From Candidatus Scalindua sp. SCAELEC01 (GTDB taxonomy: Bacteria; Planctomycetota; Brocadiia; Brocadiales; Scalinduaceae): a stretch of DNA of 24,000 nucleotides. Positions within the stretch are counted from its first letter, which is position 1, and each line of letters opens with the position of its first letter. The translations under genes were made by a program, and so were the position numbers. Shown here piece after piece: positions 2,958 through 20,980 of this stretch. The notes under the pieces were generated by a model. The model did no database searches. It was not told where the DNA came from and saw only the letters and a program-made list of their open reading frames with translations. Location of the stretch: contig SHMT01000009.1 in assembly GCA_004282745.1 (NCBI GenBank), forward strand, positions 39,039 through 63,038, read 5' to 3'.

Positions 2958-2998
2958 TCGTCTTTCTCCTTTTTACAATTTCTTCGTTAGAGTACGCC

Positions 2999-3785: not shown

Positions 3786-3831
3786 TAAGCGCAATGTTTT
3801 GGGGTCAAAAAACCGGAAGGAAAAAGAGACA

Positions 3832-6800
3832 ATGGATAGCAAGGAAAGATTAGAGTGGTATCCCTATGCCCACAAAATGCCTATACGCAACCTCCACAAA
3901 TCTGCCCTACAGGGAAAGAGGGTCTTTCTCAGAGTCAACTATGATATTGTGAGAGACGGAAAGATTATTGACGACAGGCGTATCAGAGCAACAGTCATGG
4001 ACATCCGTCATATCCTGAAGAGTGGTGCAGATACCGTTATTATCGTTTCCCACAACGGAAAACGGGAAAATTTTTTTAAAGAAAAGAAGACGTCGGTTGG
4101 TGTAGTATCCGATGGAGAGTGCCATTCCGCTTTCAGTCTCAGGCCGGTCGCAAAAAGACTTACAGAGGTCTTGAGAGTGAAACGTCTTTTGACCGAAGAC
4201 GATGAAGTCCCCATGACAGACGAATGCATTGGAGAAAAGGCAAAATCACTGATAGCTCAAAAGGGGATCTTTCTGTTAGAAAATGTGATGTTCTGGAGCG
4301 GTGAGACATCGGAAGATGACAATGAGGTTATGGAGTTTGCAAGACAACTCCACGATACTACCCATTGTGATTTCTATGTCAACGCCGATCCGGTCTCTGC
4401 TCACATGGGTCAGCATGCATCACTCGGGCAAATAACCAGACTCATCCCAGGCCCAAAGGTGGCAGGCTTTCTCCTCACTCAGGAGCTCACGGTACTCGAA
4501 AATTTTATGAGACACCCTCATAAACCGGTAACGGCCATTATTGGTGGCGCCAACGTATCAGCCAAGGTCGAGGCAATGAGAAACCTCATAGTCCACGGAA
4601 AGATTGACAGACTCATCATCATAGGAGGCATAGCATTTCCCTTCCTTAAGGCACAGGGTTATGATGTAGACAACTGTATGCTCGAAAAAGATTCAGATCT
4701 ACAAACTCAGGCGCTTCGCAATGCAATTGTAGTGCTTGAATTGGCGAGGGGATACGGAGTGGATATAACGCTTCCCGTTGACCACATGATGGCAAAGCTT
4801 ACGGGTCTTGATCCAATAAACGTTAAGGTAAACGAAATAAAGGGACGTTTCTTAAAGATGAGGGCCTATGACATTGGCAACGAGACGATCGCCCTTATCA
4901 AGAAAAAGATGCGGGGTTCCAAAACCATCGTTTTCAACGGAATTGCCGGCAAATATGAAGATGAACTGTTTTGTAACGGTACGAACCGGATCCTTGACCT
5001 TGTTTTTTCCTATGAAGTGGAATCCAAGATCATCCTTGGACTTCACTGTGTTAAAGCGGCACAGAAAAGGCTTGGCACAAAAATCCCTCCTGGAAAGACA
5101 TACCTTTCTACCATGGGAGAAACAGGTTTAAAGCTCCTTGCCGGTGAGGACCTGACCGCATTGGACCATCTCGACGATCTTCCGACAAAAGCCCTCCATC
5201 AAGCAAAGGAACCTTTACGGGAGAGGATCAACCTGAATGCCGCAAACGTTGAGGAGTTAGAGGGATTCCTCAACATTAAAGGCAATATTGCAGCAAATAT
5301 CGTTCGCTATAAAGAGGAGATAGGTGAGTTTGATAGGGTGAGTCAGCTATTTTCAGTACCTAATCTCACCCTTAATGACTATGCAAAAATACGGGAACAT
5401 ACCGTTGCCATGCCTAGCCCCCTTGAAGTGGCAGAGAGACAATTTGCCGTCGTTGCAGATATGCTTAAGCTTCCGAGTTTTCTCAAACGAAAGTTGCTCA
5501 CACCCGAAAGGATAGAGACAGTACGCCTCTTAGGTGGTGAAACAAATGCATATCGCGTCCACCATAACACCTCACGAGGCCCAGCAAAGGGAGGTTTCAG
5601 AGAACACCCGGAGGTAACGCTTGATGAGGCAAGGGCCCTTGCCATCTGGATGACGTGGAAGTGTGCTATCGCGGGTATCCCTTATGGAGGTTCAAAAGGG
5701 GGCATTATCATCAATCCAAGGGATATTCTGGAGAAAAAAGATGCATTAATAATCAGAGAGTATAGCCGTGAATTGAAGAACCGGGGTGCCTGCGGACCAC
5801 ACCTGGATATCCCTGCCCCTGATGTCAACACCAATGCCACCAAGATGGCGTGGTTTGTTGATGAATACATCAAGACATCGCTCGAAAATAAAGACTTTTC
5901 TGATTGGCAAGCAGACGAAACTATCTCTTTAGAGAAAATCGTCCATGAATTCAGCTCAATAAGCTCTCTGCCCACAACCCCTATCGATACGCCCTACCTT
6001 GATACCTGTTTAGAAATAATAAAAAAACATCCGGGAATACGGTGCAAGGCGATAGCGGTTGTTACCGGCAAACCGGACACAAAAGGCGGCTCTCTCGGCA
6101 GGGCAGAATCAACAGGACGTGGAGTATTTATCGCCTTAAAGAAGGCGGCAAAGCATAAGAACATAGAGCTGCAAGGCGCTACTGCTGCAATACAGGGCTT
6201 TGGTAACGTGGGACGTCCACCCGCAAGATTTTTACATGAAGCAGGGGCAAAAGTGATTGCCATTACGGATGCCAGTGGCGGGATCTACAACCCGAACGGC
6301 CTGGACATAGAAGCCGTATTTACCTATGTCGACTCAGAAGGATCTGGATTCCTGAAGGGATTTCCGGGAGGGAGAGACCTATCAAACGAGGGTATTTTCG
6401 GATTGGACGTCGACTTCCTCATCCTCGCCGCACTGGAAAACGCCATCGATCGGAATGCGTACAATGTTAAAGCCCGGATCATTGTGGAGGGAGCCAATGG
6501 ACCGGTTACGCCACAAGGAGATAAAATTGTAACCAGAAAAGGGACCTTTGTTACCCCAGACATAAGCACCAACCTGGGAGGTGTCTTTGTCTCTTACCTC
6601 GAATGGGTCCAAAATCTCAAGAATGAGCGTTGGGACTTAAACAAGATTAACGATCTGCTTGAGGATAACGTTTGCATGATCTTTGATGACATCATCAAGA
6701 TCGCTCAAGACCTCAAGATTGAGATGAGGACTGCAGCGTCAATTATGGCAATAGGTCGTGTGGCCGTCGCCGAACTTTCTAAGGAAATTGCCCGTTTAGT

Positions 6801-7104
6801 TATCTATGGAAGCAACGTAACCGAAGAGATACTCACTACCGTTCAAAACCATTTAGAATATTTAAGCAATGATTTGATGATGAAAATCCCGCTCGATTAC
6901 TGGACACTCGTATCCCTCCTATCGAACCTTGAAAAAGTGTTAGCCTCAAACAAGATTGCCGATGCAGACGTTGGAAGAATAGCAGAGGACATCTATGCCA
7001 AAGCCACCTGCCTCTTTGCCTCATTCGTTAAGGCAAAACCCGGAAATGACGACCTCTTGATGGCACTGGCCGCATTGCCGGAACGTGCGAGGAAGATGCT
7101 ATAA
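3832..7104 (+). CDS. Multidomain fusion: PGK-like domain (~3880-5180), ComEA-type helix-hairpin-helix (~5227-5400), Glu/Leu/Phe/Val dehydrogenase (~5415-6775), uncharacterised C-terminal tail
   Basis: One uninterrupted frame. The ORF track starts at TTG 3799; I prefer ATG 3832, preceded by GGAAGGAAAAAGAG. PGK-like motifs: LQGKRVFLRVNYDIV, DDRRIRA, VSHNGKR, LLENVMF, YVNADPVSAHMGQHAS, IIGGANVSAK, FNGIAGKYE, LSTMGETG. HhH segment: INLNAANVEELEGFLNIKGNIAANIVRYKEEIGEFDRVSQLFSVPNL. GDH motifs: GPAKGGFREHP, IPYGGSKGG, DIPAPDVNTN, MAWFVDEY, TGKPDTKGGSLGR, IQGFGNVG, EGANGPVTP, GGVFVSYLEWVQN. Confidence 0.85.
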   Translation: MDSKERLEWYPYAHKMPIRNLHKSALQGKRVFLRVNYDIVRDGKIIDDRRIRATVMDIRHILKSGADTVIIVSHNGKRENFFKEKKTSVGVVSDGECHSAFSLRPVAKRLTEVLRVKRLLTEDDEVPMTDECIGEKAKSLIAQKGIFLLENVMFWSGETSEDDNEVMEFARQLHDTTHCDFYVNADPVSAHMGQHASLGQITRLIPGPKVAGFLLTQELTVLENFMRHPHKPVTAIIGGANVSAKVEAMRNLIVHGKIDRLIIIGGIAFPFLKAQGYDVDNCMLEKDSDLQTQALRNAIVVLELARGYGVDITLPVDHMMAKLTGLDPINVKVNEIKGRFLKMRAYDIGNETIALIKKKMRGSKTIVFNGIAGKYEDELFCNGTNRILDLVFSYEVESKIILGLHCVKAAQKRLGTKIPPGKTYLSTMGETGLKLLAGEDLTALDHLDDLPTKALHQAKEPLRERINLNAANVEELEGFLNIKGNIAANIVRYKEEIGEFDRVSQLFSVPNLTLNDYAKIREHTVAMPSPLEVAERQFAVVADMLKLPSFLKRKLLTPERIETVRLLGGETNAYRVHHNTSRGPAKGGFREHPEVTLDEARALAIWMTWKCAIAGIPYGGSKGGIIINPRDILEKKDALIIREYSRELKNRGACGPHLDIPAPDVNTNATKMAWFVDEYIKTSLENKDFSDWQADETISLEKIVHEFSSISSLPTTPIDTPYLDTCLEIIKKHPGIRCKAIAVVTGKPDTKGGSLGRAESTGRGVFIALKKAAKHKNIELQGATAAIQGFGNVGRPPARFLHEAGAKVIAITDASGGIYNPNGLDIEAVFTYVDSEGSGFLKGFPGGRDLSNEGIFGLDVDFLILAALENAIDRNAYNVKARIIVEGANGPVTPQGDKIVTRKGTFVTPDISTNLGGVFVSYLEWVQNLKNERWDLNKINDLLEDNVCMIFDDIIKIAQDLKIEMRTAASIMAIGRVAVAELSKEIARLVIYGSNVTEEILTTVQNHLEYLSNDLMMKIPLDYWTLVSLLSNLEKVLASNKIADADVGRIAEDIYAKATCLFASFVKAKPGNDDLLMALAALPERARKML

Positions 7105-7158
7105 AGGGTTTATTAAAAAAAGTTGCAAACAGTGCTCACATATCAAAAATTGTATTAT

Positions 7159-7187
7159 ATGTAGTACATTTCCCACGCGTACTACAT
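7159..7187. promoter_or_regulatory. 9-bp perfect inverted repeat upstream of the RHH antitoxin gene; candidate autoregulatory operator
   Basis: ATGTAGTAC (7159-7167), 11 nt, GTACTACAT (7179-7187). It lies 32 nt upstream of the ATG at 7219, and TGTATTATA (-10-like) overlaps its left arm. RHH antitoxins typically bind palindromes in their own promoters. Confidence 0.4.
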
Positions 7188-7218
7188 TTGTGTTCGATTG
7201 TTTGGGGGGTAATCAATA

Positions 7219-7431
7219 ATGACTTCACTACGCCTTGATAAAGAAACTGAAAATAGACTGGCACATCTGGCAAAAGCGACAGGGAGAACCAAAACGTTCT
7301 ATATCCGCAAGCTCATCGAGGAGCATATTGACGACCTAGAGGACAGATACATTGCCGAAGAGCGGCTAGAAAACCCCGCTAAGCGCGTTACAAGTAAGGA
7401 AATGAGACAAAAACTTGGCCTGGAACATTGA
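7219..7431 (+). CDS. Ribbon-helix-helix antitoxin (RelB/ParD/CopG-like)
   Basis: 70 aa. The N-terminal beta-strand plus two helices are typical of RHH antitoxins (MTSLRLDKETENRLAHLAKATGRTKTFYIRKLIEEHIDDLED). An acidic, flexible C-terminal part follows. Confidence 0.75.
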   Translation: MTSLRLDKETENRLAHLAKATGRTKTFYIRKLIEEHIDDLEDRYIAEERLENPAKRVTSKEMRQKLGLEH

Positions 7432-7468
7432 ATATGACAGCAGAGTTTTATTTGAATCCTATCGCTGA
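7415..7468 (+). pseudogene. Truncated RelE/ParE-type toxin remnant (17 codons)
   Basis: A frame overlapping the antitoxin 3' end reads (TTG)AWNIEYDSRVLFESYR-stop. The M-A-W-x-I-E-Y opening resembles the N-termini of RelE/ParE-family toxins, which normally overlap their antitoxin stop. The frame ends after 17 codons and no toxin-length ORF follows before pqiB. Confidence 0.4.
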
Positions 7469-7562
7469 ATCACCAGACCCATCTTCATTTTCCACATCGT
7501 CAGAAATATAGCCAGCCATCAAAGCTTAGGCGAAGCTCAATACTGTTAAATATACCCATCGC

Positions 7563-9188
7563 TTATTGAGCTAATTTAATACTTGGCTTCCATTTCAGCC
7601 AGCGTTCACTCACCTTGGTATGAAAGGGAAAAACAGTGTTCTCACTGGCTTGCTCCTCCATATCTTCATTGTCCGGCGTGGCAAAGGCAACACCTCCACT
7701 CATAATGGATTCAAGCGATTCCGTCTGTATTTCAAGTCCACTGAACAGTCCAAAATCAACCCCGATCCCGCTGGTATTCCAGAAGACCGAATTTTTTCTT
7801 ACCAATGGTGTATAACGTTTTTGAATATTTACATATAACAGAACATGGTCGGCGGTGTCAGCAAGTTCATAGCTGGTGACTTCACCCACCACAATCTCAC
7901 GGTAATAAACCTTGTCACTTACCTTGATGGAACCCAGCCGACTGGCATTAAGGACAATATTCAATCCCGACCCGGTTGGTGTCTCAGTTGGTTTCTCAAC
8001 GGGAGATTTCCGCTGCCCCACAAACTCATATTTGTGTTTACCTTCTTTCTTCGCCGGCATGACAGCGATATAATTACCCGTAATCATTGTCCCCAGGTGT
8101 GAAACTTTGGAAAGGCCGAATTCGGGTTTTACTACCCAGAACCGAGTTCCCTCCTTTGCAAGGGCGACGGCATTGCTATCCAGATGTGCGGATAAAAACA
8201 CTTTTTCTAATGATTGGCCAAAAGTAACCTTATCCACTTTGCCAACGGTTATCCCATGGTACTTAATCTCAGTATTTTCACTCAGCCCCTCAGCGCTGTC
8301 AAACGTAATTTTTATCTTCACCCCCGTCTCATGGGCACTTTCGTAATCGTCATAAAGGGTAAATGTGTGGCCGTTTTGAACTACCGGTGCCTTGAATTCA
8401 TCTTCGGGTGTATAGAAAGCCAACCCTCCGCTAAGGATTGTTTCTAAGGATTCTGTTCGGATCTTCCACCCTGACAATCCGCCGCTGAAACTGATACCGC
8501 CAGCATTCCAGAAACGGGTTTTTTCATTCACCATATGACTGAATTGAGGGTATATAAATATTTTAGTTTGAACTTCCTTCTTATCCTCGGAAAGTTTGTA
8601 ACTCTGCACATCACCCACCTTTATTTTTTTATAGTGCACCGGGCTGCCACGTCCGACCGACATGTTTTTAGAAACCATGGTCAAATGCAACCCGGGCTCA
8701 TCTTCTGATAATGTTGGCGGTTCGGCGAGAGCCTTGAAACTCAGGGCCGGTTTCTCATCCCAATCATTAACGCGCATAGCGATATGGTTTCCCTTCAACA
8801 CGGTACCCAGCCCTGAAACCCCCTTCAGGGACATTCGGGGTTTAACAAGCCAGAATTCTGTATTACTCGAAAGTGCCGGTTCCGCCTGCCTATCAAAATC
8901 AACAGTAACATCAACGGTCTTGAGATCAGGATTCATGTGTAAGGATTTGACAACACCCGCATTGAGGCCTTTGTAGATCACTTTGGTTTTACCGGCTGTT
9001 ATTCCCTCTCCTGTATCAAAATTAATAACAACCTCTATCGGCGCCTCCGCGATACCTTTATATAAAAGCCAGCCTCCGATCAGGGCCGCAACAATGGGAA
9101 GTATCCAGACAGGAGAAATGCCCTTTTTACGCTTAACAACTGCTTGTTCTAAAGGTGCTGTTTCTTCTTTTGATTTTTCGTCAGTCAT
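7563..9188 (-). CDS. pqiB: PqiB-like MCE-domain intermembrane transport protein (four MCE-type repeats)
   Basis: N-terminal TM helix (ISPVWILPIVAALIGGWLLY). Four spaced MCE-type segments: AGKTKVIYKGLNAGVV, GRGSPVHYKKIKVGDV, ENTEIKYHGITVGKV, VSDKVYYREIVVGEV. Each is followed by an FW(L/V)VKP... or FWN..GI...TESLE.I.SGG.AF.TP block. Strong SD (AAGGAGG) 7 nt upstream of the ATG. Confidence 0.88.
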   Translation of the reverse strand: MTDEKSKEETAPLEQAVVKRKKGISPVWILPIVAALIGGWLLYKGIAEAPIEVVINFDTGEGITAGKTKVIYKGLNAGVVKSLHMNPDLKTVDVTVDFDRQAEPALSSNTEFWLVKPRMSLKGVSGLGTVLKGNHIAMRVNDWDEKPALSFKALAEPPTLSEDEPGLHLTMVSKNMSVGRGSPVHYKKIKVGDVQSYKLSEDKKEVQTKIFIYPQFSHMVNEKTRFWNAGGISFSGGLSGWKIRTESLETILSGGLAFYTPEDEFKAPVVQNGHTFTLYDDYESAHETGVKIKITFDSAEGLSENTEIKYHGITVGKVDKVTFGQSLEKVFLSAHLDSNAVALAKEGTRFWVVKPEFGLSKVSHLGTMITGNYIAVMPAKKEGKHKYEFVGQRKSPVEKPTETPTGSGLNIVLNASRLGSIKVSDKVYYREIVVGEVTSYELADTADHVLLYVNIQKRYTPLVRKNSVFWNTSGIGVDFGLFSGLEIQTESLESIMSGGVAFATPDNEDMEEQASENTVFPFHTKVSERWLKWKPSIKLAQ

Positions 9189-9334
9189 TTTTCCGCCTCC
9201 TTATATTTTGATGCTGATAGCAAACAAAGATGGCAAAACTTTTTTCTATTCTGTAATTGGACTTTTATCCGTAATCTTTTAATTAAAAATCCCAAATCGT
9301 AAATCATAATTCTTAATTTGTTGCCAAAATTGAT

Positions 9335-9361
9335 GATAATTTTTTTTCCTGATCCCTAAGC
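9335..9361 (-). repeat. Solo MITE terminal repeat in the pqiA-pqiB spacer
   Basis: GATAATTTTTTTTCCTGATCCC followed by TAA. Compare the copy-A right end AAGTTATTTTTTCCTGGACCC followed by TAA. Confidence 0.55.
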
Positions 9362-9402
9362 TTTATCGTCCGTATTTCGACTTTCAAATTCAGATTGGGC
9401 CT

Positions 9403-10641
9403 TCACTCGTCCCATATTAGCCGTGGATCAAAGCATACAGCCGCCAGCATGGTCATGACCACAGCCGCACAAAAAAATGTTCCTGCAAGCCCACCCGTAA
9501 TTTCCGCTAATGAACCCAGATTTACCAGGGTAACAAGAATAGAAATGACAAATATATCCAGCATGGACCAGCGTCCAATCGCCTCTATGGCCCTATACAT
9601 TATTGTACGTTGCCGACGACGTAAGTTCCACTTAAACTGCACCGACAACAACAGCCAGATCAGGCCTGCTATTTTGAGAAAAGGAACAGCTATACTGGCA
9701 ATAAAGACAACCAGCGCAATGGGTATCATGTGTTCTTTCACCAGCAGGAGCACACCAGCAATTATTGTGGATGGTTCACCCTGTCCCCTATAGACCAGAG
9801 TCATAATCGGATACATATTGGCCGGTATTAAGCAAATTAAGGCCGTTATGACCAACGCCCAGGTTTTAGTGAGACTGCCAGGTCGTCGTTTGTGTACATT
9901 TGCCCCGCAGCGTGGGCATATCAATTTCTGGTGTTCTTTAATTTCGGGGTATCTCAGCAACTTGTGGCAATCGTGACAGGATATCAGTCCGGCCGATTTG
10001 GAGGTAAGCTGCGCTTTTCTCCCGCTTATCTTTTCAATGTGCTTCCAGACCTGTTCTTTATCCAGCGTTAATGTCGCCAGTGTGTCAGTCAAAAGCAGAC
10101 CGACAAAGCAAAACAACCCGATCCCCATATGAAGATCTGCAAGATCGACGAGCTTGGTAACAGATATCAGGACCCCAATCATGTATACTTCCAGCATTCC
10201 CCAGGGACCCAGATACCCATAAAACCTGAAAAGTGACGGCAACCATTTCGTATAAATATTGAGTTTTACCTGAAGGAGCACTATCAGCAGAATAATTAAT
10301 TTAGCAACAGGCGCCAGTATGCTGGCGAAGAGAACCACAAAAGCTACCCAGTAAAAACCATCCTGGTACATACCGACAACCCCTCCAATCAACGTGTTAA
10401 ACGACGTATTCCCTAAAATGGTCATATTCAGGATTGGGAAAAAAATGGCCGGCCATAGCAGAATCAGACCGACGATCACCAGTGCCAGTGTCCTGTTAAG
10501 CGTGTTGACCCTTGGTTCATATATGGGAGTGCTGCACCGCGGGCACAGGGCCTTATTCCCGGGCAAGACATACGGTTTCTCAATAAGCAGGTCGCACGCG
10601 TGACAGGCTGTCAGACGTGATATATCAAAATGTGTTACCAT
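9403..10641 (-). CDS. pqiA: PqiA-like integral membrane protein (two PqiA repeats with zinc-ribbon motifs)
   Basis: Two CxxC...CxxC motifs (CHACDLLIEKPYVLPGNKALCPRC and CHDCHKLLRYPEIKEHQKLICPRC), each followed by multiple TM helices. The ORF track extends to 10854. I prefer ATG 10641 (MVTHFDISRLTACHAC...) because the extra 71 residues lack any PqiA-like character. The start remains uncertain. Confidence 0.85.
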   Translation of the reverse strand: MVTHFDISRLTACHACDLLIEKPYVLPGNKALCPRCSTPIYEPRVNTLNRTLALVIVGLILLWPAIFFPILNMTILGNTSFNTLIGGVVGMYQDGFYWVAFVVLFASILAPVAKLIILLIVLLQVKLNIYTKWLPSLFRFYGYLGPWGMLEVYMIGVLISVTKLVDLADLHMGIGLFCFVGLLLTDTLATLTLDKEQVWKHIEKISGRKAQLTSKSAGLISCHDCHKLLRYPEIKEHQKLICPRCGANVHKRRPGSLTKTWALVITALICLIPANMYPIMTLVYRGQGEPSTIIAGVLLLVKEHMIPIALVVFIASIAVPFLKIAGLIWLLLSVQFKWNLRRRQRTIMYRAIEAIGRWSMLDIFVISILVTLVNLGSLAEITGGLAGTFFCAAVVMTMLAAVCFDPRLIWDE

Positions 10642-10862
10642 TTTTGTTTTATTGAATAAAATCCTTTTATTTTTCAAAAAAGAGGTTCGGGAATTAATCC
10701 ACCTTATTTCAAAGTATGGAAGTGTGGCCAGCGCAAGCCAGAATCTGATCGATGAGATCGTGTGGCCACACTTCTGGTCTTCGCAAATTGTGCTCCTTGC
10801 AGCATTACTTCTTTTTAGTTCATCAGTAGAACTGATTCGTGAAATTGGCGCCATAAACCAGC

Positions 10863-11183
10863 TTATTCAATCCCGCATTCCCGCTTAATCTGAGCAATTT
10901 TTTCGTCTATCTTTTTATTGTAAACGCCACTACCTACTTCGAGTTTTTCTTTTTCCGTCAATGTGAGGATACCCAAGACAGCACCAATTGGCGTAATGGC
11001 AGTCACGCCACTTGCCGCTTGCTTTGCTACGCTGGCCTTTTCATGTTCTAAGACTCTTATATCTCTTTCTGCCGTAACACAATTAACAGGCTTCGCAAGA
11101 TCCTCCTCTGCCTGCCGAGTTATGGGGCCGGAACATGCTGCTACAAGAATGGTTATGCAAATTATTGGTATATATCTATACAT
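10863..11183 (-). CDS. Small putative lipoprotein, unknown function
   Basis: Signal peptide with lipobox (ICITILVAAC-SG). The SD AGGAGG is better spaced for the ATG at 11183 (MYRYIPI...) than for 11189. No family recognised. It is not PqiC-sized. Confidence 0.6.
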   Translation of the reverse strand: MYRYIPIICITILVAACSGPITRQAEEDLAKPVNCVTAERDIRVLEHEKASVAKQAASGVTAITPIGAVLGILTLTEKEKLEVGSGVYNKKIDEKIAQIKRECGIE

Positions 11184-11755
11184 TTCCATTTCCTCCTTAG
11201 TATGATAGTTTCAAAAATAATATTAGTTCCCGGGGTGGTCAACCGATACAACCCTATATTTCTCCTTTCTTTTCTTAAAAAAACAACATAGCGGAAAATT
11301 ATCAGACGTTAACAACTTTTTATAGCTAAATAATGACTTCATAATAGCTTTCCATTATTGCAAAGTAAATTAAAAATCCTCTTAATCTGAAATCGAGCCA
11401 ACCACTTTACATAATAAAATTCATTATGCATGTTTAAAGAAATAACAGACATGGTTTACCTGATTTTCATCAGAATAGATCTTGACTAATTCTGTTTTAA
11501 ACCAGCACTTTCTGTCGCCTTCCACCCAACCTGTTCGAGCCAAAACAATAAGGAAGACAAATTATATGGTATGCAATTCCTGCTTTAGGGACATAATCCC
11601 TAAAAGGCACAAACTTCAGCCTGGACTGTTACGCTTATCCGCTTCGCTTATTTCCCGGCCTCGGATTACGAGCTTGCGGTCCTCGGTTGACTTACCCATA
11701 AAGTTCTCCTATACTCTAACGGTAAGAGTTTAACCGAATGGATAAATCGGCGTAA

Positions 11756-11863
11756 GAAAAATATGTCGCTGTAGTGCTAATCGTATGTTCTTTGCTTGAT
11801 ACTGGATTAAGGGTTGCCGAGTTCTCCAATTTTAAAAGAGACAACATCGATTGGCAAGTGCTA
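11756..11863 (+). pseudogene. Tyrosine recombinase/integrase fragment (box I region only)
   Basis: EKYVAVVLIVCSLLDTGLRVAEFSNFKRDNIDWQ matches the integrase pattern around the first catalytic Arg (LL..TGLR..E...L...DID). A stop lies immediately upstream at 11753, and integrase similarity is lost downstream. Confidence 0.5.
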
Positions 11864-11935
11864 GCGAGGAATTTTGATGAAAACTCTAAAAGAGGCGCTT
11901 TTCTAGAGTCCTTTGGGAACATACCAATGAGTACT

Positions 11936-12085
11936 AATGGAAATCCGGCCTATTCATTTGATACTGGTCTTACTTATCAGCCTCGCAACAATCTTCAATT
12001 TGACACAAGTGCTGGAGTTGGATTTTCAGATAATGCTGATGATTGGTTTGTCGGTGCTGGGATTAACTTCACCTTCCCTTTTTAG
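11936..12085 (+). pseudogene. C-terminal fragment of an outer-membrane beta-barrel protein (MetA-pathway/transporter-like)
   Basis: NPAYSFDTGLTYQPRNNLQFDTSAGVGFSDNADDWFVGAGINFTFPF-stop shows alternating beta-strand periodicity and a terminal aromatic residue (F), typical of OMP C-termini. Only ~50 residues remain, fused in frame to the integrase fragment. Confidence 0.45.
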
Positions 12086-12090
12086 TCTAC

Positions 12091-12119
12091 TAAGGGCCCA
12101 GGAAAGAATAATGAGTTGT
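12091..12119 (+). repeat. Solo MITE terminal repeat
   Basis: TAA followed by GGGCCCAGGAAAGAATAATGAGTTGT. Compare TTA followed by GGGTCCAGGAAAGAATAACTTT at 16314. Confidence 0.5.
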
Positions 12120-12373
12120 CCATTACCTATCCAGACATTTTTTCTCAGGTAAATATAAATCTAGACCTTATTCGGCCAGGTGGAATAATTACCAAACGAG
12201 CCACTACCAATCTCTCACAACAACGCAAAATAAGACACAGGTATCAATCCAAATTGTTCCCACTACCAGAAAAAGAGTGGACATCTCTCAGAAAAGAGGG
12301 AAAATAGAGATTAAAAATTCTTTTTAACGGTTCACGAACCGTTAGAAACATTTATGAGAGAAAGGGGTTGTGT

Positions 12374-13156
12374 ATGAGTGCAGGTGATAACAAATCAGCA
12401 AAGAGTCAGGCCATCAAGGAAAGATTTGTAGAGAGGGAGGTCTTTGGATCTATCAGTTCCGTCATGGAGAGGATCTTTAAGGATGAAAAGAAAGAGCTCT
12501 CGATAGAACGTGATGTCCTGGGATTCATATCGTTGTTAATGGAAAACCTCATTAAAAGCGGCCGGAAGGATAGAGCTGCAGAGAGAGAAATCCTGGAACG
12601 CACCCGAGCATTAATAGAGTCAATTAAGAGTAACGAGAGCTGTGAGATTGTAGGGGAGGTTGAGAATCTCTATAAATACAAGATCAAAATTCCGGACCTA
12701 CACAACCTGAAGATTGATGAAAAGATCCGCTCTTCCAAAGAGGTTGTCTTAAAAACAGGACGCGAAAAGGCAATGAAAGAGATAAAGGAAAAAATAGGGG
12801 AATTAAAGGGTGAAGAGAATTTCAGCACACTCATGCTGGCAGATGAAGAGATCTCTGAGGAGACAAACAAGAAGAACCGGGATCATATCGATGAGAGGAT
12901 TGAGGAACTGCAAAATTATCTGAGCGATATTGAGAAGGGTAAAGGCAAACAACAAAAAATTTCAGAGTGGCTCCATGTCTCAAATCTGCTGCACGATAAC
13001 CTGCAGAAAAAGGGTGAACCGGTATGGAATGACGGCCAGGTATACGTCTGGGGTCGGTGCTCAACAGAAAAGGCAGTGACCTCGGAAGAGGTAATTTCTG
13101 ACATCTGCAGCGACATGAAAATCCTCGAAGGACAGGAGAACGAATGGAGGATATAA
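12374..13156 (+). CDS. Hypothetical charged protein with N-terminal ~24-aa repeats, probably coiled coil
   Basis: The ORF track starts at TTG 12368; ATG 12374 is preceded by AAAGGGG. Three related repeats: EREVFGSISSVMERIFK, ERDVLGFISLLMENLIK, EREILERTRALIESIK. A long K/E-rich middle follows. The C-terminal part is Cys/Trp-containing (WNDGQVYVWGRCSTEKA...). No family recognised. Confidence 0.6.
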   Translation: MSAGDNKSAKSQAIKERFVEREVFGSISSVMERIFKDEKKELSIERDVLGFISLLMENLIKSGRKDRAAEREILERTRALIESIKSNESCEIVGEVENLYKYKIKIPDLHNLKIDEKIRSSKEVVLKTGREKAMKEIKEKIGELKGEENFSTLMLADEEISEETNKKNRDHIDERIEELQNYLSDIEKGKGKQQKISEWLHVSNLLHDNLQKKGEPVWNDGQVYVWGRCSTEKAVTSEEVISDICSDMKILEGQENEWRI

Positions 13157-13338
13157 TCTAGGGGGGTGAATTTCCCTTGATTGTACAGGTTCGTCCCCCT
13201 GTTGCATAAATAGGAGTGACGATACTCTTTAATCGGATGGGAATTACCAACCACTCCGTTTTTGGTCGGCTACGGGCTTTCTGTAGGTACACCTCACTAC
13301 GCTCTTATAAAAAAAATCAACAACTAGCATTCAAGACA

Positions 13339-13926
13339 ATGGAAAAGAACACGATACCAAAATCAGCATTCAACACTTTCTTTGAACAGCATAATGCTTT
13401 TCAATCATGCGGTTTCAGTGAGTGGGTCTTCTCTCCCGGAATGTTGTACCGAGACCGTAATTCGTGGTGGAAATCGGGTGCTATCCGCCCTGTGCCCCAT
13501 GAAGGCATCGACCTCTATCTCTTTAGGGACAAAACCGGTCAAATTTGTCGCCTTAACGGGTATACAATGATCCCCGTCATGTATGACGGCCTACTAATGC
13601 ACATTCATGATGATTTCCTGGGTAAATCGCTATACGTAAAACACCATATCAGTATTAAAGGGCAGACACTTCATACCATATATGGGCATGTAGTTCCTGA
13701 AAAATCCAGTGAATTAGGAGACACTGCACGAGAGGGAGAAATTATCGCAACAGTAGCTTCCCCATCGAAAAAGAGTGCGGTACCTCCCCATGTACATATC
13801 ACCATGGCATGGCTTCCTGACACCCTTTCGTGTAAAGAGTTGAACTGGGAGACAATCGGTAATCATGACCACATTACGCTCTGTAATCCGCTGGATTTCA
13901 TAGACACCTACTCTTTTGCCTCTTAG
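13339..13926 (+). CDS. M23 (LytM/lysostaphin-type) metallopeptidase family protein, no recognisable signal peptide
   Basis: HxxxD motif (PHEGIDLY), conserved His in TIYGHV, and HxH motif (PPHVHITMAW). The ORF track starts at GTG 13216, directly abutting TAGGAG. I prefer ATG 13339 (MEKNTIPKSAF...). Neither start gives a hydrophobic leader. Confidence 0.75.
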   Translation: MEKNTIPKSAFNTFFEQHNAFQSCGFSEWVFSPGMLYRDRNSWWKSGAIRPVPHEGIDLYLFRDKTGQICRLNGYTMIPVMYDGLLMHIHDDFLGKSLYVKHHISIKGQTLHTIYGHVVPEKSSELGDTAREGEIIATVASPSKKSAVPPHVHITMAWLPDTLSCKELNWETIGNHDHITLCNPLDFIDTYSFAS

Positions 13927-14002
13927 GAAGGCAGGGAAATCAGGAAAAAACATTAAAAACAGATAATTTGCCTTTCCCATTCTTTCCTGTAATTCCTGAA
14001 TT

Positions 14003-14030
14003 CCTTAGAGGCCCTGTTTTACCTCTAAGG
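14003..14030. terminator. 9-bp perfect hairpin in the convergent intergenic region (candidate terminator)
   Basis: CCTTAGAGG (14003-14011), 10 nt, CCTCTAAGG (14022-14030). It lies between the convergent M23 and cooS genes. No clean U-run on either side. Confidence 0.35.
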
Positions 14031-14073
14031 AAAAAGATTTCATAACTATCTGGTTATTACTATACTCCAAAAT

Positions 14074-14091
14074 CCCCTCTAGAAAGAGGGG
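14074..14091 (-). terminator. Candidate rho-independent terminator downstream of cooS
   Basis: CCCCTCT, AGAA, AGAGGGG. Read on the minus strand, the GC-rich stem is followed by ATTTTGGAGT. Confidence 0.4.
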
Positions 14092-14213
14092 TGTCTACGA
14101 TAGCAGACGGGGTGTGTAATACAAGTTGCAAATTTCCAATGAAATGTAATCATAAAAATCGTATCTCCCAAATCGTAATTCGTAAATCTAAAATCTAAAA
14201 TCGGTTTGTCCGA

Positions 14214-16190
14214 TCATATCCCAAGCCCCTTCCTCTTTTTCTGGATATGGTTGATCATCGCCTTTGCCGATTCATCTGGATCTATCTCAATAAGGAGGGT
14301 ACTCCCCGTTATCTGCTCCAACTCCTTGGTAAGCATATTAATTACGTAGGGTGACCCGCTCAGCTTGGGCGTCACTCCAATGTGTGTGGTAATACCGAGG
14401 GCGATCACGCCCATGTAAATGGCAGCCGCCTTTTCCACAACGTGTTCAGCGGCACTTGCAACCAACGGAAGTTTATCGATGGAGGTCTCCAGGTAATCGG
14501 CAATTGAGGCCGCTAATACCGCACACCGTGAATTGTCAACGCATGAGCCAAAATGGAGGATAGGCGGCATTGAGCCATTTAGGCCCGCTGCCTTGCCAAT
14601 CGTATCTAAAGCACCACGTAATGATCCCCCAACGATGCTCTTCGCTTCACCCTTTAACAGGCCGTGTCTCGCACAAGCGGTAGCTGCACACCCTGTAGCA
14701 AGGACAAGAATATTATTCCTGAGAAGTTCCTTAGCGATGGTTACGAAACTCATATCTGTCTGGATCTTTGAAGACAAGCATCCTGCAATGACGGCTACCC
14801 CCTGGATAGATCCATCAATAATTAAATCTACCAACGGTTTCAGCGGTTTTTCCGGATTGAGGGTTTCAAGCACACCCATCAGTGCTTCTACAGAAAATCC
14901 TCCCAACAGGTCATGGCCTTTTGCCTTCGGCAAAAATGTTCGTTCCGGAACACGCTCTCTATACGCAGCAATTGCCTCTTCAACGATCCTCCCTGCCGCT
15001 TCCTGGGCATTATCTGGTGTAAATTCTATATAGATATCGTTGTCCATTCTGAGTTCTGGCATGGTCGTAATTAAGCGGGTATGAAGAGATTGCGTAATCG
15101 TTGAGAGTGATGGATAGACACACTGGACATCTACACACACGGCATCAACCAAACCAGTACCGACAACAAGTTCCTGCATAATCGTGCTACCGGCCATCGG
15201 GATCCCAAGCCTAACCAATACCTCAGTACCCGTACAACAGGTACCGACCACATTGATACCTTTGGCACCTACTCCCAAAGCCTTTTTCGTCAATTTGTTT
15301 GCCTGCGCAATAACCATCTCTGATAGTACGGGCACATGACCATGAACGAGGATATTCACTTTGTCCTTGTCTAAGGCATCCATCCCGATCCTACTCGGTT
15401 TTGGTGTTGGGACTCCAAGCAGGATATCTTGTAGCTGTGTTGAAATGTAGAGGGCCATCATATCGACCACACCAAATTTCAAACAGGAGAGGAGCAGATG
15501 TTTCGTACTGCTCATCATCCCCTGTGCAGTGCTATGCACACCCTGGACAATTGTCTCCGCTGCCCCTTTCTGAGGGATAAGGCCCGTTTCGACAAGTTTC
15601 TCTATCTTTTTTGGTGCCAGGGCTAGTGCAAAACTCATTGGACCCTCACCCGGTCCGACAAGATCTTCCATGGCCTTTTGTCCTATCTCTCTTGCGATTT
15701 CAAGGTTCTGTTTTTGCGCAATATTGATACCCAAATCTTTTGCAACCGCAAACAGTTTTTGCTCATCTTTTATGGGAAAATGGTCAGAACCTTCCGCCGC
15801 CTTAACAAATGTCCTCGCCACATGCAATGCGTGGCCAATATGAGAACTTGTCCCCCGCAATACCGTCTGCAAGAACATGCCGGCCACCATGCTATCCGCT
15901 GTCTTACCGCAAGAGCTCCGATTCACTTTCGGCACGGAAAACTTCAGGTGCAGAGGCAACTCTTCGCTTCCTAACCTGCATGGTCCAAGATTGCAGTTCC
16001 GACAACAGAGGCCGTGACTTCCAAATGAACATCTATCTCCCAAACCAAAAAGAGTCGAATCATACGCAGCTTGAACATCCCAAACGGTTTCAACACCCTC
16101 TGTTCGCAAAAATGCAACGGTCTCTTCAATTTGCTTATCGGCAACTCCTTTTCTACGTAATTCCTTCTCCTTTTCCAACCATTTTTGCAT
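14214..16190 (-). CDS. cooS: Anaerobic Ni-Fe carbon monoxide dehydrogenase catalytic subunit (CooS family)
   Basis: N-terminal cluster motif CSFGSHGLCCRNCNLGPCR...C. Candidate C-cluster ligand contexts: VHGHVPVLSE, VGTCCTGTE, VDVQCVYPS, IAGCLSS, LATGCAATA, HFGSCVDNSR. The ORF track starts at TTG 16223. ATG 16190 (MQKWLEKE...) has AAGGAGGAG 5 nt upstream. Confidence 0.88.
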   Translation of the reverse strand: MQKWLEKEKELRRKGVADKQIEETVAFLRTEGVETVWDVQAAYDSTLFGLGDRCSFGSHGLCCRNCNLGPCRLGSEELPLHLKFSVPKVNRSSCGKTADSMVAGMFLQTVLRGTSSHIGHALHVARTFVKAAEGSDHFPIKDEQKLFAVAKDLGINIAQKQNLEIAREIGQKAMEDLVGPGEGPMSFALALAPKKIEKLVETGLIPQKGAAETIVQGVHSTAQGMMSSTKHLLLSCLKFGVVDMMALYISTQLQDILLGVPTPKPSRIGMDALDKDKVNILVHGHVPVLSEMVIAQANKLTKKALGVGAKGINVVGTCCTGTEVLVRLGIPMAGSTIMQELVVGTGLVDAVCVDVQCVYPSLSTITQSLHTRLITTMPELRMDNDIYIEFTPDNAQEAAGRIVEEAIAAYRERVPERTFLPKAKGHDLLGGFSVEALMGVLETLNPEKPLKPLVDLIIDGSIQGVAVIAGCLSSKIQTDMSFVTIAKELLRNNILVLATGCAATACARHGLLKGEAKSIVGGSLRGALDTIGKAAGLNGSMPPILHFGSCVDNSRCAVLAASIADYLETSIDKLPLVASAAEHVVEKAAAIYMGVIALGITTHIGVTPKLSGSPYVINMLTKELEQITGSTLLIEIDPDESAKAMINHIQKKRKGLGI

Positions 16191-16818: not shown

Positions 16819-18291
16819 ATGAGGATAGTACTGTTTTCCATGCCGGATATGGTGCCGGCATTTAAGGGGTGGCGACCTCCCAATCTAGCCATATCTTCCA
16901 TTGCCGGGAATCTCAGGAACCACGATGTTTACCTGGCAGACCTGATCCTCGTGCGACAGAAACTTACCTCCGCTATCAAAAACACCCTCCTTACCTACAA
17001 ACCTGAACTTGTCGGTATCAGCTCGATGAGCTTCCAGTTCTACACTGCCAGACGTATCGCCTCCTTCATTAAAGAGCTTGATAGCAATATCAAGATTGTA
17101 TTGGGCGGATACCATGCGACTCTCATGTACAAAGAGATTGGGGAAGAAGAGGAGTCAGGCCCCTTTGACTTTATCCTTCGGGGTGAAAGCGATCTCAGCT
17201 TCGGAGAGCTCGTCAATTCCTTTGAAAAAAAAACCAGTTACAGAGATGTGAGGGGATTATCATTCCGGCAAGATGGAGTTTTTGTACATAATCAACCAAG
17301 ACCCATTGAAGATCTGACAAAAATAGCCTTGCCACAGAGGACAAATCGAATCTGGAAAGGATATACCTTTGGAGTTAAACAACTTGATATTGTAGAGACC
17401 TCCCGTGGCTGCACAATGCCATGCAATTTTTGCAGCATGAATCATATGTACGGAAGAAAATTCAGGACCTATGCGATCGAACGCGTTATCAAAGACATCT
17501 CCAATGCAAAAGAGCAGGGAGCTAAGTATCTGGCAATTGCAGATGATAATATCACCTTGAACACGAAAAGATTTGAGGAGCTCTGTGATGCTATCACTCA
17601 AGCTGGTCATAACGATATCCGTTACATCGTGCAAACATCCTGCTCGGGTATCGCATCCTCAAAAACCCTATCAGCAAAGATGGCACGTGCAGGTTTCGAA
17701 TTTGTTTTTCTCGGTATTGAAAATGTGTCTACACGAAATCTCAAGATGATGAAAAAGGGTAATATTTTAGAGAGTATAAAGCGAGCGGTGGACCTTCTCC
17801 ATAAGCACCATATGCTTATTATTGGAGGTATGATTATCGGAAACCAAGAAGACAGGGAAGAGGACATTGCCCAGAATTATGAATTCTTCGACAGACACAA
17901 TATTGATTTTATCAGTGACCAAATAATGACCCCATATCCTAAGACCATTATCAGAGAGGAGCTGATCAAGGCTGGCCTCGTCTCAAATCTAGAGGACTAT
18001 CGTAAGTACAACGGTTTTTGGGCAAATGTGAGATCACAGCATCTGAGTTCCGAAGATTTACAGTTCTTAAAATGGAAGTACAAACGGAAATACTCCACAT
18101 TTTTCAAAACAACCCCCTCTTTTAAGGCGAGGTTTCCGCTCGTTAATCTCCTGAGAGTTTTACTCCTCAGGCCATATTTTCGGATAAAGGATGGAACTCG
18201 TTCCTTGCTCAGGACTGAAAGGGAGATATTCCAGGAAGATATGGATAAGTTTAATCATTTGAATGATTTTAGAGAATTAGATAGTGTTTGA
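16819..18291 (+). CDS. B12-binding-domain radical SAM protein (class B)
   Basis: N-terminal cobalamin-binding-like Rossmann region (MRIVLFSMPD...VGISSMSFQFYTARRIASFIKE...IVLGGYHAT). Radical SAM CxxxCxxC motif (SRGCTMPCNFCSM). TIM-barrel elements follow (IADDNITLN, VFLGIENVS). Confidence 0.88.
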   Translation: MRIVLFSMPDMVPAFKGWRPPNLAISSIAGNLRNHDVYLADLILVRQKLTSAIKNTLLTYKPELVGISSMSFQFYTARRIASFIKELDSNIKIVLGGYHATLMYKEIGEEEESGPFDFILRGESDLSFGELVNSFEKKTSYRDVRGLSFRQDGVFVHNQPRPIEDLTKIALPQRTNRIWKGYTFGVKQLDIVETSRGCTMPCNFCSMNHMYGRKFRTYAIERVIKDISNAKEQGAKYLAIADDNITLNTKRFEELCDAITQAGHNDIRYIVQTSCSGIASSKTLSAKMARAGFEFVFLGIENVSTRNLKMMKKGNILESIKRAVDLLHKHHMLIIGGMIIGNQEDREEDIAQNYEFFDRHNIDFISDQIMTPYPKTIIREELIKAGLVSNLEDYRKYNGFWANVRSQHLSSEDLQFLKWKYKRKYSTFFKTTPSFKARFPLVNLLRVLLLRPYFRIKDGTRSLLRTEREIFQEDMDKFNHLNDFRELDSV

Positions 18292-18358: not shown

Positions 18359-20980
18359 ATGGAAAATAATTTCTCATTTATTAAGGACGAAAAATTTGAT
18401 TCCAAGATGCTATACGATCCCTATATAACGGAGGCTTTTATTCCAAAAGAGTATAATTTAAAAACTTCCGGCAATACCCTTCAACTAGAAAACAAGAATG
18501 AATTACGACACGCTGTAGGGGTTGTTGCCGCTCGATCCCTAAAATATTTCAGCACCAATGGAGAAGATTTTAACATATTTCGCACCCGAAATATGGCCGT
18601 CTGGTGGCTGAGGCACATATACAATAGCTTTAACTGGTGGAAGGCTTATGTCGTAAATGCTGAGGGAGAACGAAAAGATATGCCTATGTTGTACATAGGA
18701 GAAAAATTTGGCTCTGCAACAGGTCATAAGGAAAGGGAGGCGGACATTGCACTCAGTGCCTTTGAGAACGCTCGCTGTATCGTTAATCCCGAATTTAAAG
18801 GGGGCTCAATTTTTGCCGTTGGGTACAGCAATAGGGGTGAATTGTTCAATTCACCTGATATGTACGGAACAAAGACCATTGTCGGAAACAAATATAGTGG
18901 AGCAGGCGTACGCGCAGATCTACCAGTTACACAAAATCTCACATTGATGGCTAAACATACACTGAAAAAGAGAAACGAAAAACCAACACCAGATAACATC
19001 CGAGCAGAAATCAAAAAGATGAGGATTCTGACTCTGGAGAGATCAAGACATAAAAAGCTTGCAGAAACCATATCAAAAATCGGAGCTACGGCAATTCTGG
19101 TTAAAGACGACGACCTCACGCCAACGTTCGCGGCAGCAAGAAACGAAATAGACCTTATTCTTGGAGTAGGGGGTGTTCCTGAAGCAGTGCTGAGCGGAAT
19201 AATAGTTGAACATTTTCGCGGTGAAATGACGTTGCGGATATTACCTGCCGAAGTTGCCCTGGAAGAAAAACTGCTCTGCAGACATGAGAATTGGGAAGAT
19301 TTTAGAAAAAATGAGATAGACACTTTGAAAAATTTCAAAATTGTGCGGCCCGGTAAACAAAAAGCGGGAGAAATGCCCTGGAATCGACTCCTTACTTCAA
19401 AAGAACTGGTAAAAGGGAAGAGCGCTGTTTTTACTGCCGGCATAATAAAAAAAAACCCCTGGATACAATTCCCTAATGGTAGCGAAGTCCCAGGGGTGAC
19501 CATTAATCCTGAAACGGGTGACGTTAAAGTACATGTCGTTCGTATTACCTGGAAGACTATTGAAATTATTCCCATTATCTACAAAACAACGATTGGTAAA
19601 TATAGGAGTGATTATGAGCGTGGCCAGCATTCAGACGGAGAAACGGGCGCACGCTTACTACTTGAATTAGGAAAGGCATATGCTGAGTTCGGTCTCTTCG
19701 AAGAGGCGCGGGATTGTGTGCAAAAAGCGAGAAAACAGTTTCCGGCAAAAAACGACTTAACTTTGAAATGTAATTCCGTTTACGAATACATTTCAGGAAT
19801 TGAGTTCCTTACAAAAGCGTCACTGCAAACTCCAAAAGAGATAATAGAACACTTTGCTAAGTCTGACTGCTTAGAAAAGGAGGAGAAGGATGCCCTGAGA
19901 GACAGGAAAATGTTTAAAAGGTTTTATGAATTTATGGGAGATAAAAACAGTCATGCAAAAAAATATAATGATGCGCTCTGTTGCTACAGAGAAGCCTTAC
20001 GATATAGACCCCATGAGTTGAAATTGCACCGAAAGGTTAACTCGATAGAGATGAGAGACATAATAACAGAGTACTTTCATCGAATTGACAAAATATACCG
20101 GGAATCAAACTATGAAGAGCCCGATGATTGGAATTGCCATAAACTTATCACGGCCCTTGAAGTTTTTTACGGTAGACCAAAATCGGTAATATTTTCATGC
20201 AGAAAACCCTGGCTAATATTTTTCAGGAGAACCGTATTGCATGGAGAAACACCTTCTCAAAAATTGGCAATTTTAATTACGCTCCTTAGATTATACAAGA
20301 CACTCTGCAGGGCAAACGACAATGATCTCTCCGCTTTATTGAATAATGAATTTCGAATAAATCCAGAAGAGACAATGATTATTTTAGCGTATAGAAAAAA
20401 CCGTACAATATTCGATTCTATAGAAAAACTCTATTTTGCACAGGGGTTGAATCGCAATTGCCTGACTAAGCTTCTTTTTCCTCGAGTAAAAGTGGCAAGC
20501 CGTAATGAGATAGAAGATTCCGAGATTCCACTGAGTATTAGCCTAGTAGAGGCTATGGAACAGAGGTGCAAAAATATCTTGGAAGAGCTTAAGGAGGGAT
20601 ACAAAGACGAAGCCCAAGAGCATTCATATGCTGTAGCAGAGGCCTACCATTATGTTGGCTTGGCACTTTATGATTCGGGGGACTGGAAAGGTTCAAAAAT
20701 TTATTATAACCAGGCAATAGATCGATTTCAGGAAATAATAGAAAAATTTGAAGGGATCACACCGGTAAATGCACAATATCGGATCGGTAATCTATATGAA
20801 GAGTTGGCCTTATTGTTTGAGACGGAACAAAAAGCCTATTACCGTAGAGCAAAAGCGGCATATTGGTGCATTATAGACGAAAAGAAGTCTATCGAACTGT
20901 TTGGTTCCATACGGGACCTCACCTATATAAGAACCGAACAAGCAAAAGACAAAGTAAAAAATATTGATAAAGATTTGTAA
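18359..20980 (+). CDS. Fusion of a GlpX-like (class II fructose-1,6-bisphosphatase) fold (~aa 50-420) with a ~440-aa TPR-like/helical-repeat C-terminal region
   Basis: It is collinear with GlpX: AEGERKDMPMLYIGEKFG, EADIALSAFENAR, SPDMYGTKTIVG, ILTLERSRHKKL, ILVKDDDL, LGVGGVPEAVLSGII..GEMTLRIL. The C-terminal half has TPR-like helix pairs (ARLLLELGKAYAEFGLFEEARDCVQKA, YNDALCCYREALRY, AEAYHYVGLALYDSGDWKGSKIYYNQAIDRF, YRIGNLYEE). Confidence 0.8.
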   Translation: MENNFSFIKDEKFDSKMLYDPYITEAFIPKEYNLKTSGNTLQLENKNELRHAVGVVAARSLKYFSTNGEDFNIFRTRNMAVWWLRHIYNSFNWWKAYVVNAEGERKDMPMLYIGEKFGSATGHKEREADIALSAFENARCIVNPEFKGGSIFAVGYSNRGELFNSPDMYGTKTIVGNKYSGAGVRADLPVTQNLTLMAKHTLKKRNEKPTPDNIRAEIKKMRILTLERSRHKKLAETISKIGATAILVKDDDLTPTFAAARNEIDLILGVGGVPEAVLSGIIVEHFRGEMTLRILPAEVALEEKLLCRHENWEDFRKNEIDTLKNFKIVRPGKQKAGEMPWNRLLTSKELVKGKSAVFTAGIIKKNPWIQFPNGSEVPGVTINPETGDVKVHVVRITWKTIEIIPIIYKTTIGKYRSDYERGQHSDGETGARLLLELGKAYAEFGLFEEARDCVQKARKQFPAKNDLTLKCNSVYEYISGIEFLTKASLQTPKEIIEHFAKSDCLEKEEKDALRDRKMFKRFYEFMGDKNSHAKKYNDALCCYREALRYRPHELKLHRKVNSIEMRDIITEYFHRIDKIYRESNYEEPDDWNCHKLITALEVFYGRPKSVIFSCRKPWLIFFRRTVLHGETPSQKLAILITLLRLYKTLCRANDNDLSALLNNEFRINPEETMIILAYRKNRTIFDSIEKLYFAQGLNRNCLTKLLFPRVKVASRNEIEDSEIPLSISLVEAMEQRCKNILEELKEGYKDEAQEHSYAVAEAYHYVGLALYDSGDWKGSKIYYNQAIDRFQEIIEKFEGITPVNAQYRIGNLYEELALLFETEQKAYYRRAKAAYWCIIDEKKSIELFGSIRDLTYIRTEQAKDKVKNIDKDL

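Follow-up and report, generated by a model that had tools for sequence, protein, structure and literature searches.

Is a protein which carries the fold and the database name of a class II fructose-1,6-bisphosphatase (FBPase, GlpX) still able to act as one, when the residues that perform the reaction are replaced? This question is raised by a gene of Candidatus Scalindua sp. SCAELEC01, located in a 24,000-nucleotide stretch of contig SHMT01000009.1 (positions 39,039 to 63,038 of the forward strand), hereafter the window, in whose own numbering all positions are given. The open reading frame (ORF) 18359..20980 of the plus strand, with its stop codon at 20978-20980, runs uninterrupted for 873 amino acids (aa) and combines a GlpX-like domain with a long helical-repeat region. 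Its product is 100% identical to a protein of Ca. Scalindua sp. AMX11 annotated as 'fructose-bisphosphatase class II'. Judged from its sequence, this protein very probably cannot catalyse the FBPase step. The reading that we favour, with somewhat better than even confidence, is that of a pseudo-class II FBPase joined to a TPR-like alpha-solenoid, which would bind a fructose-phosphate-type ligand and scaffold or regulate enzymes of carbon metabolism.

Replaced and retained residues of the active site

The whole fold of GlpX is present. Pfam FBPase_glpX (PF03320) matched aa 79-364 (E 2.3e-36; 125.7 bits, above the gathering cut-off of 27), and the whole domain, as delimited with Pfam and Foldseek, covers aa ~46-412 (18494..19594, +). 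With the NCBIfam glpX equivalog model TIGR00330 the score was 107.3 bits against a cut-off of 259.3, and for this reason we regard the product as a clear GlpX homolog, but not as its functional equivalent by the NCBI criterion. When the single sequence was compared by phmmer with all PDB chains, the matches were class II FBPases of E. coli, Francisella, M. tuberculosis and cyanobacteria (E 2e-17); a profile built from 26 homologs matched the PDB class II FBPases at E 1e-28 to 5e-30. Identity to canonical GlpX is about 20-23%.

The reference set of active-site residues was taken from the M. tuberculosis GlpX structure and comprises Asp33, Glu57, Asp85, Glu88, Thr90, Tyr119, Lys164, Arg166, Asp188 and Glu213 (PMC5892879). 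One metal is held by Asp85, Glu88 and Glu213 and the other by Asp33 and Glu57, the 6-phosphate is bound by the triad of Tyr119, Lys164 (or Arg) and Arg166, and the sugar hydroxyls are contacted by Asp186, Glu88 and Asp188 (PMC5892879). Class II FBPases require for catalysis two metals and Thr90 paired with Asp33. The M. tuberculosis variant Thr84Ala, in which the catalytic threonine is changed to alanine, is inactive (PMC5892879). The states of these positions were counted in an alignment of 113 full-length homologs, and also in a smaller version of 26 sequences.

HMMER alignments to 1ni9, 2r8t and 7js3 place the canonical block DIAVDPIEGTR on DIALSAFENAR (aa 129-139, 18743..18775, +). In this degenerate catalytic loop the metal-1 ligand Asp85 is replaced by Ser133 (serine in 113 of 113 homologs), Glu88 is kept as Glu136 (113 of 113), Gly89 is replaced by Asn137 (again without exception among the 113) and the catalytic Thr90 by Ala138. 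The alanine of our protein is an exception at the last position, where the family consensus is aspartate (109 of the 113, next to two Ala, one Gly and one Asn) and neither Thr nor Ser ever occurs. Asp33, the metal-2 ligand, is aligned with Arg77 (18587..18589, +), which is Arg in all 113. Glu57 and Glu59 are retained as Glu102 and Glu104 of the segment AEGE (aa 101-104, 18659..18670, +; both 113/113), and the metal ligand Glu213 as Glu275 of GVGGVPEA (aa 269-276, 19163..19186, +; 112/113). The 6-phosphate triad is represented by Tyr169 for Tyr119 (18863..18865, +; Tyr in 112 of 113) and by the outer residues of Arg228-Ser-Arg230 (19040..19048, +) for Lys164 and Arg166 (Arg in 113 and 112 homologs, respectively). 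Asp186-Gly187-Asp188 reads Asp250-Asp251-Asp252 (19106..19114, +), with both sugar-hydroxyl aspartates kept: the position of Asp186 holds Asp in 69, Glu in 41 and Asn in three homologs, while Asp251 in place of Gly187 and Asp252 for Asp188 are found in all 113. The motifs PMLYIGEK and GxGGxPEG are likewise shared with canonical GlpX. Each of the two catalytic metal sites has one aspartate replaced (Asp33 to Arg, Asp85 to Ser) and the catalytic threonine is lost; the residues that hold the fructose 6-phosphate (F6P) part in solved GlpX structures are all kept and near-invariant in the family.

The first-pass annotation of the window, which relied on a hand alignment, had assigned residues ~50-420 to the class II FBPase fold, read DIALSAFENAR as an altered DIAVDPIEGTR with Asp85 changed to Ser and Thr90 to Ala, noted the altered Asp33 region and listed E57/E59, the DDD equivalent and E213 as retained. 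The profile alignments bear out each of these points and the register on which they depend; no alignment restores the catalytic set, D33, D85 and T90 being truly replaced.

As a control, a single alignment anchored on a hidden Markov model (HMM) was made of all fetched proteins, including ~110 canonical GlpX representatives of 300-350 aa, which were taken from an exhaustive search of 1.84 billion cluster representatives. These canonical proteins read E/E/D/E(D)/T/Y/R(K)/R/D-G-D/E almost universally, with Asp33 wherever this region aligned. Since D85 and T90 are almost never replaced among them, the substitutions described above are not ordinary GlpX variation. At positions 33 and 187 the combination of Arg with Asp was found in 131 proteins and that of Asp with Gly in 28, and there were no mixed cases; as the sequences are related, this co-occurrence is better taken as a clade signature of coordinated remodelling than as independent covariation. 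Within the protein, conservation is also highest in the GlpX-like domain (mean column identity 0.80, compared with 0.58-0.74 in the tail, 26-sequence alignment), which argues for a maintained pocket, the opposite of decay. On the sequence-based definition the product may be classed as a candidate pseudoenzyme, a term for catalytically deficient enzyme homologs that serve as regulators or scaffolds: its fold is kept, its catalytic motif residues are gone and the remaining pocket is under strong purifying selection.

Fold, helical tail and relatives of the family

The AlphaFold model obtained with 26 sequences was mediocre (pLDDT 75.9). With 113 sequences pLDDT rose to 85.5 and pTM to 0.85, and on the strength of this pTM the product is predicted to be one coherent two-domain protein. 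Foldseek superimposed aa ~46-412 of the model on E. coli GlpX 2r8t with a TM score of 0.85 (target-normalised) and a root-mean-square deviation (rmsd) of 3.7 A over 366 columns; across the E. coli (2r8t, 3d1r), M. tuberculosis (6ayy, 7txb) and Francisella (7js3) structures the target-normalised TM was 0.72-0.85 over ~370 columns. The best Foldseek E-value (1e-16; TM 0.78-0.80, target-normalised) was obtained with the dual FBPase/sedoheptulose-1,7-bisphosphatases of cyanobacteria (Synechocystis 3roj and 3rpl, Thermosynechococcus 5a5l). These share with our protein the superfamily and the layout of the pocket, but are catalytically complete, single-domain Calvin-cycle tetramers, whereas the Scalindua protein is degenerate and has a tail.

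Three segments distinguish the protein from canonical GlpX. The N-terminal extension (aa 1-45, 18359..18493, +) forms short beta strands in the predicted models. An insertion of ~49 aa within the fold (aa 297-345, 19247..19393, +), specific to the lineage, was modelled at pLDDT 89-95 with 113 sequences. The helical tail of ~460 aa consists of a proximal region (aa 413-570, 19595..20068, +), recognised with a tail-only HMM, and a distal helical-repeat region (aa 571-873, 20069..20977, +), which contains the strongly conserved motif EAQEHSYAVAEAYHYVGLALYD. The tail was modelled with high confidence as ~25 helices (aa 411-872). Pfam TPR matches in it are marginal and limited to aa 431-462 (TPR_14/TPR_1) and aa 754-792 (TPR_2/TPR_12): TPR_2 scored 27.2 bits at a cut-off of 27, TPR_12 28.5 at 30.1, and the remaining TPR models stayed under their cut-offs. 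Foldseek matched the tail to OGT/SPY, LGN and designed TPR proteins with a probability of 1.0, yet at a TM of only ~0.2 and with an rmsd exceeding 18 A. As the matches to the TPR superhelix are only generic, 'TPR-like alpha-solenoid' is the accurate description, and in the model the middle part (aa 590-745) is non-canonical for TPR. The C-terminal TPR-like region of the first-pass annotation is in this sense upheld, and it is absent from canonical GlpX; it is not unique, as similar regions occur in Omnitrophota and Chlamydiota.

The distribution of the GlpX plus TPR architecture, whose survey had been suggested with that annotation, was followed in protein clusters and in the GTDB collection of species-representative genomes, in which loci counts are lower bounds. 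Identity to the ORF product over the full length is 51-85% in more than 110 protein clusters (867-931 aa), and full-length orthologs were present at at least 69 distinct loci. These are titled Scalindua/Scalinduaceae, Brocadia, Jettenia, Loosdrechtia, Wunengus, Subterrananammoxibius, Anammoxibacter and other Planctomycetota, which covers every sampled anammox lineage. Numerous residues are invariant in both the GlpX-like and the tail half. In a profile search of the 1.84 billion cluster representatives, the full-length family members made up a single cluster at 50% identity. In all anammox lineages sampled, one conserved gene encodes the entire architecture.

Some genomes carry two or three full-length copies, namely those of Anammoxibacter sp. 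OFTM134 (loci L056, L057 and L061) and Loosdrechtia aerotolerans YC1 (L051 and L074). These copies are 49-60% identical to the window protein, and two of those from Anammoxibacter lie on one contig. Copies of 61-63% identity were also seen on short contigs binned as Thermodesulfobacteriota (L014, 5.3 kb) and Spirochaetales (L071, 2.1 kb), a placement which probably reflects contamination of the bins and not true distribution.

Outside the anammox bacteria, proteins of 740-4950 aa match positions ~248-570 of the family profile at 110-308 bits, compared with at most 121 bits for canonical GlpX. Those with names belong to Candidatus Omnitrophota (including Ca. Orphnella occulta) and, in one case, to Chlamydiota. 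Their GlpX domain is fused with TPRs and, according to Pfam, with domains of class II fructose 1,6-bisphosphate (FBP) aldolase, triosephosphate isomerase (TIM), phosphoglycerate kinase (PGK), starch synthase or EamA transporter; no further enzyme domain was found by Pfam in our ORF product. A pairwise alignment with one Omnitrophota-type relative (P0132) demonstrated the N-terminal extension and the insertion of aa 297-345 in both proteins, and this insertion, which follows the DxD motif and lies inside the profile region 248-570 matched by the giants, is common to the Omnitrophota-type relatives. With the tail-only HMM the first ~150 tail residues (aa ~420-570) proved homologous to the helical segment directly following GlpX in the giants (30-48 bits, E-values scaled to 1.8e9 sequences). 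In the HMM-anchored alignment the giants keep the full catalytic set D33/E57/D85/E88/T90/D-G-D/E213. The closest relatives of the anammox family are catalytically intact GlpX plus TPR modules of multi-enzyme giants of sugar metabolism. Unlike them, the anammox protein is stand-alone and degenerate, not covalently joined to enzyme domains, and has an additional distal tail of ~300 aa. A preprint on giant genes describes FBPase, aldolase, TIM and TPR domains in Omnitrophota 'Archaeovorins' and makes no mention of the anammox family or of a degenerate site (10.1101/2023.11.21.568195).

Beyond the anammox family, the distal tail (aa ~600-873) occurs only in a second Scalindua paralog and in a distant relative, P0129. 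The second paralog (~985 aa; KHE91016.1 of S. brodae, MBZ0109157.1 of S. rubra) is collinear over nearly the full length at 23% identity, with the same order of GlpX-like domain and helical tail and with Arg at the Asp33 position. It is more degenerate than our protein (Asp85 to Asn, Thr90 to Glu, Asp186 to Tyr, Glu213 to Gly); its Pfam GlpX score is only 21.7 bits, and it has no precomputed Pfam match. On the Ca. Scalindua brodae-like contig NSJQ01000005.1 (L006) it occupies 6001..8961, directly 5' of RimK-like ATP-grasp, AstE/AspA-like and RimB-like genes, with pyruvate kinase close by. The gene of P0129 (locus L008, ENA ERZ1286166 contig_4070, 1..14220) is apparently split into ORFs of 97 and 739 aa and belongs to a long series of large genes on one strand, most of them devoid of Pfam matches, among which is one for a PEP-utilizer-domain protein.

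A proposed sugar-phosphate binding protein or a remodelled phosphatase

In the mechanism that we propose, the pocket would hold a fructose-phosphate-type ligand (F6P, FBP or a sedoheptulose analogue) and not hydrolyse it, and Arg77 with the co-occurring Asp251 may form a charge pair where the metal-2 site was lost. Partner proteins would dock to the helical tail, the distal half of which is anammox-specific, and the whole would, in response to a metabolite, scaffold or regulate enzymes that are gluconeogenic or related to glycogen. By the domain-fusion logic of the giants, aldolase, TIM, PGK and glycogen synthase are the partners to be expected first. The FBPase reaction itself would be done by a separate class I enzyme. 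For Kuenenia stuttgartiensis the supplement of Lawson et al. lists KSMBR1_1273 as fbp in its table of central metabolism, and its proteome includes Q1PYS0, a 37-kDa 'Fructose-1,6-bisphosphatase class 1' whose gene adjoins that of aldolase; the examined part of the proteome supplement has no 'glpX' or 'class II' entry (PMC8027424). Since a class I FBPase is expressed in Kuenenia, the GlpX-like protein need not have a housekeeping role. The earlier proposal of a repurposed sugar-phosphate-binding domain in place of a housekeeping FBPase gains support from the inactivity of the Thr to Ala variant, the constancy of D85 and T90 in canonical GlpX, the kept ligand contacts (Y169, R228, R230, E136, D250, D252) and this class I enzyme.

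Several observations weigh against such a regulator. Kuenenia is not named among the ortholog matches listed in the GTDB scan, and a canonical FBPase is documented in Kuenenia alone, not in Scalindua; E. coli Fbp, used as a tblastn query, had no match in the 622 kb of anammox DNA covered, a result that says nothing about whole genomes. The region of the catalytic loop was modelled at pLDDT of only 62-76 with 113 sequences. Domain-fusion logic, the sole ground for a scaffold role, comes from a different phylum. The gene stands alone: clustering of flanking ORFs at 73 loci gave as the commonest neighbour one that is present at only 15, all of the Scalindua lineage, and no conserved neighbour indicates a partner or a pathway. 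Finally, Glu102, Glu136 and Glu275 remain, and the Asp found at the Thr90 position in 109 of the 113 homologs could rebuild a one-metal site.

The last point leads to the most serious competitor, a remodelled but active sugar-bisphosphate phosphatase, possibly of changed substrate, with a tail that merely localises or regulates it. Here one metal would be bound by the three glutamates together with the Asp at the Thr90 position, or with Ser133, and the role of the second metal in stabilising the 1-phosphate would fall to Arg77. Of the five acidic metal ligands three are invariant, as are all contacts to the sugar and the 6-phosphate; no other part of the protein is as well conserved as the GlpX-like domain, and catalytic residues can migrate in pseudoenzymes (PMC10211241). 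Because the glutamates persist and most homologs have the Asp, we leave to this phosphatase a minor but appreciable share of our confidence. It has to contend with the fact that a single Thr to Ala change inactivates M. tuberculosis GlpX (PMC5892879) and that our protein has Ala138 at this very place; three other lineages also have Ala, Gly or Asn there, which makes the Asp dispensable. Nearly all canonical representatives keep both D85 and T90, the TIGR00330 score is less than half of its cut-off, and Kuenenia has its separately expressed class I enzyme (PMC8027424). Some of the same evidence bears on the plain reading of the annotation, a housekeeping gluconeogenic FBPase, which we hold to be highly improbable: the name in NCBI, JGI and UniRef entries and the Pfam match above the gathering threshold speak for it, but three defining catalytic residues are gone, the TIGR00330 cut-off is not reached, and the FBPase listed and detected in the Kuenenia proteome is of class I (PMC8027424). 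An artefact, in which a sequencing or assembly error would have merged two genes, deserves next to no credence, and the same is true of a decaying pseudogene. The only split case is that of the distant relative at L008, and the uninterrupted frame of ~870-930 aa in 113 homologs (51-85% identity) and at no fewer than 69 loci rules both out, as do the many invariant residues of both halves and the pTM of the model. The fusion by error that the first-pass annotation had envisaged is likewise contradicted by the same ~880-aa architecture in the more than 110 clusters.

Apart from the pseudo-FBPase with a helical tail that we favour, a more ambitious version of it may be entertained, although we find it doubtful as a whole. 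It envisages an anammox-wide, dedicated FBP/F6P-sensing pseudo-phosphatase, whose TPR platform would assemble or gate a gluconeogenesis/glycogen complex, and which would be a non-catalytic stand-alone descendant of the Omnitrophota-type mega-enzymes. In the literature searched no description of a GlpX-family pseudoenzyme was found, nor any paper linking glpX to anammox or discussing the anammox GlpX-like family. The protein is a conserved GlpX derivative, probably non-catalytic, with a scaffold specific to anammox bacteria; neither its fold nor its class of repeat is unfamiliar, and pseudoenzymes are a known concept.

Genomic surroundings and meaning for anammox metabolism

Directly upstream, 67 bp 5' of the gene and on the same strand, lies an ORF for a B12-binding radical SAM enzyme of 490 aa (16819..18291, +), and NifS-like and nitrilase-like genes follow on the 3' side; none of these neighbours is conserved. 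The radical SAM gene was considered as an operon partner and ruled out, the neighbourhoods being wholly different in Brocadia sinica, in Loosdrechtia and on a 5.1-Mb metagenome contig. Scans of the window for promoters and terminators, Rfam families and tRNA gave nothing above chance. Two adjacent ORFs, 12368..13156 (262 aa) and 13216..13926 (236 aa), both on the plus strand, have no Pfam match at E <= 1e-5. The ~1.5 kb located 5' of 12368 (10.9-12.4 kb) contain only short ORFs, have the lowest G+C of that part of the window (0.387) and yielded no Rfam or tRNA hit.

A further long ORF of the window, 3799..7104 (+, 1101 aa), encodes a fusion of a complete PGK (aa 35-450), a helix-hairpin-helix motif (aa 475-533) and a complete glutamate dehydrogenase (GDH, aa 583-992), annotated merely as 'phosphoglycerate kinase'. 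It is kept at 67-100% identity in 34 full-length and 4 partial clusters, all of the Scalindua lineage except for one Brocadiia metagenome-assembled genome. A GDH-like gene at L008 is 35% identical to its GDH part. The fusion may be another instance of glycolytic enzymes that are fused or scaffolded.

The practical consequence concerns annotation in the first place. Every named public entry seen calls the protein 'fructose-bisphosphatase class II', by which metabolic reconstructions of anammox bacteria can count the gluconeogenic step wrongly. The family is at the same time a conserved marker in every anammox lineage sampled, and it illustrates how a fused enzyme module may become a stand-alone regulatory pseudoenzyme; its apparent origin from intact GlpX plus TPR modules fused with aldolase, TIM, PGK and starch synthase offers a testable hypothesis about its partners. 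If ligand binding holds true, the protein would represent a new type of sugar-phosphate sensor and a route into the control of carbon flux in organisms of the nitrogen cycle and of wastewater treatment. Should it indeed be an FBP/F6P-sensing pseudo-phosphatase, the GlpX family would have in it its first pseudoenzyme, and carbon flux in a genetically intractable autotroph a regulator that defines the lineage.

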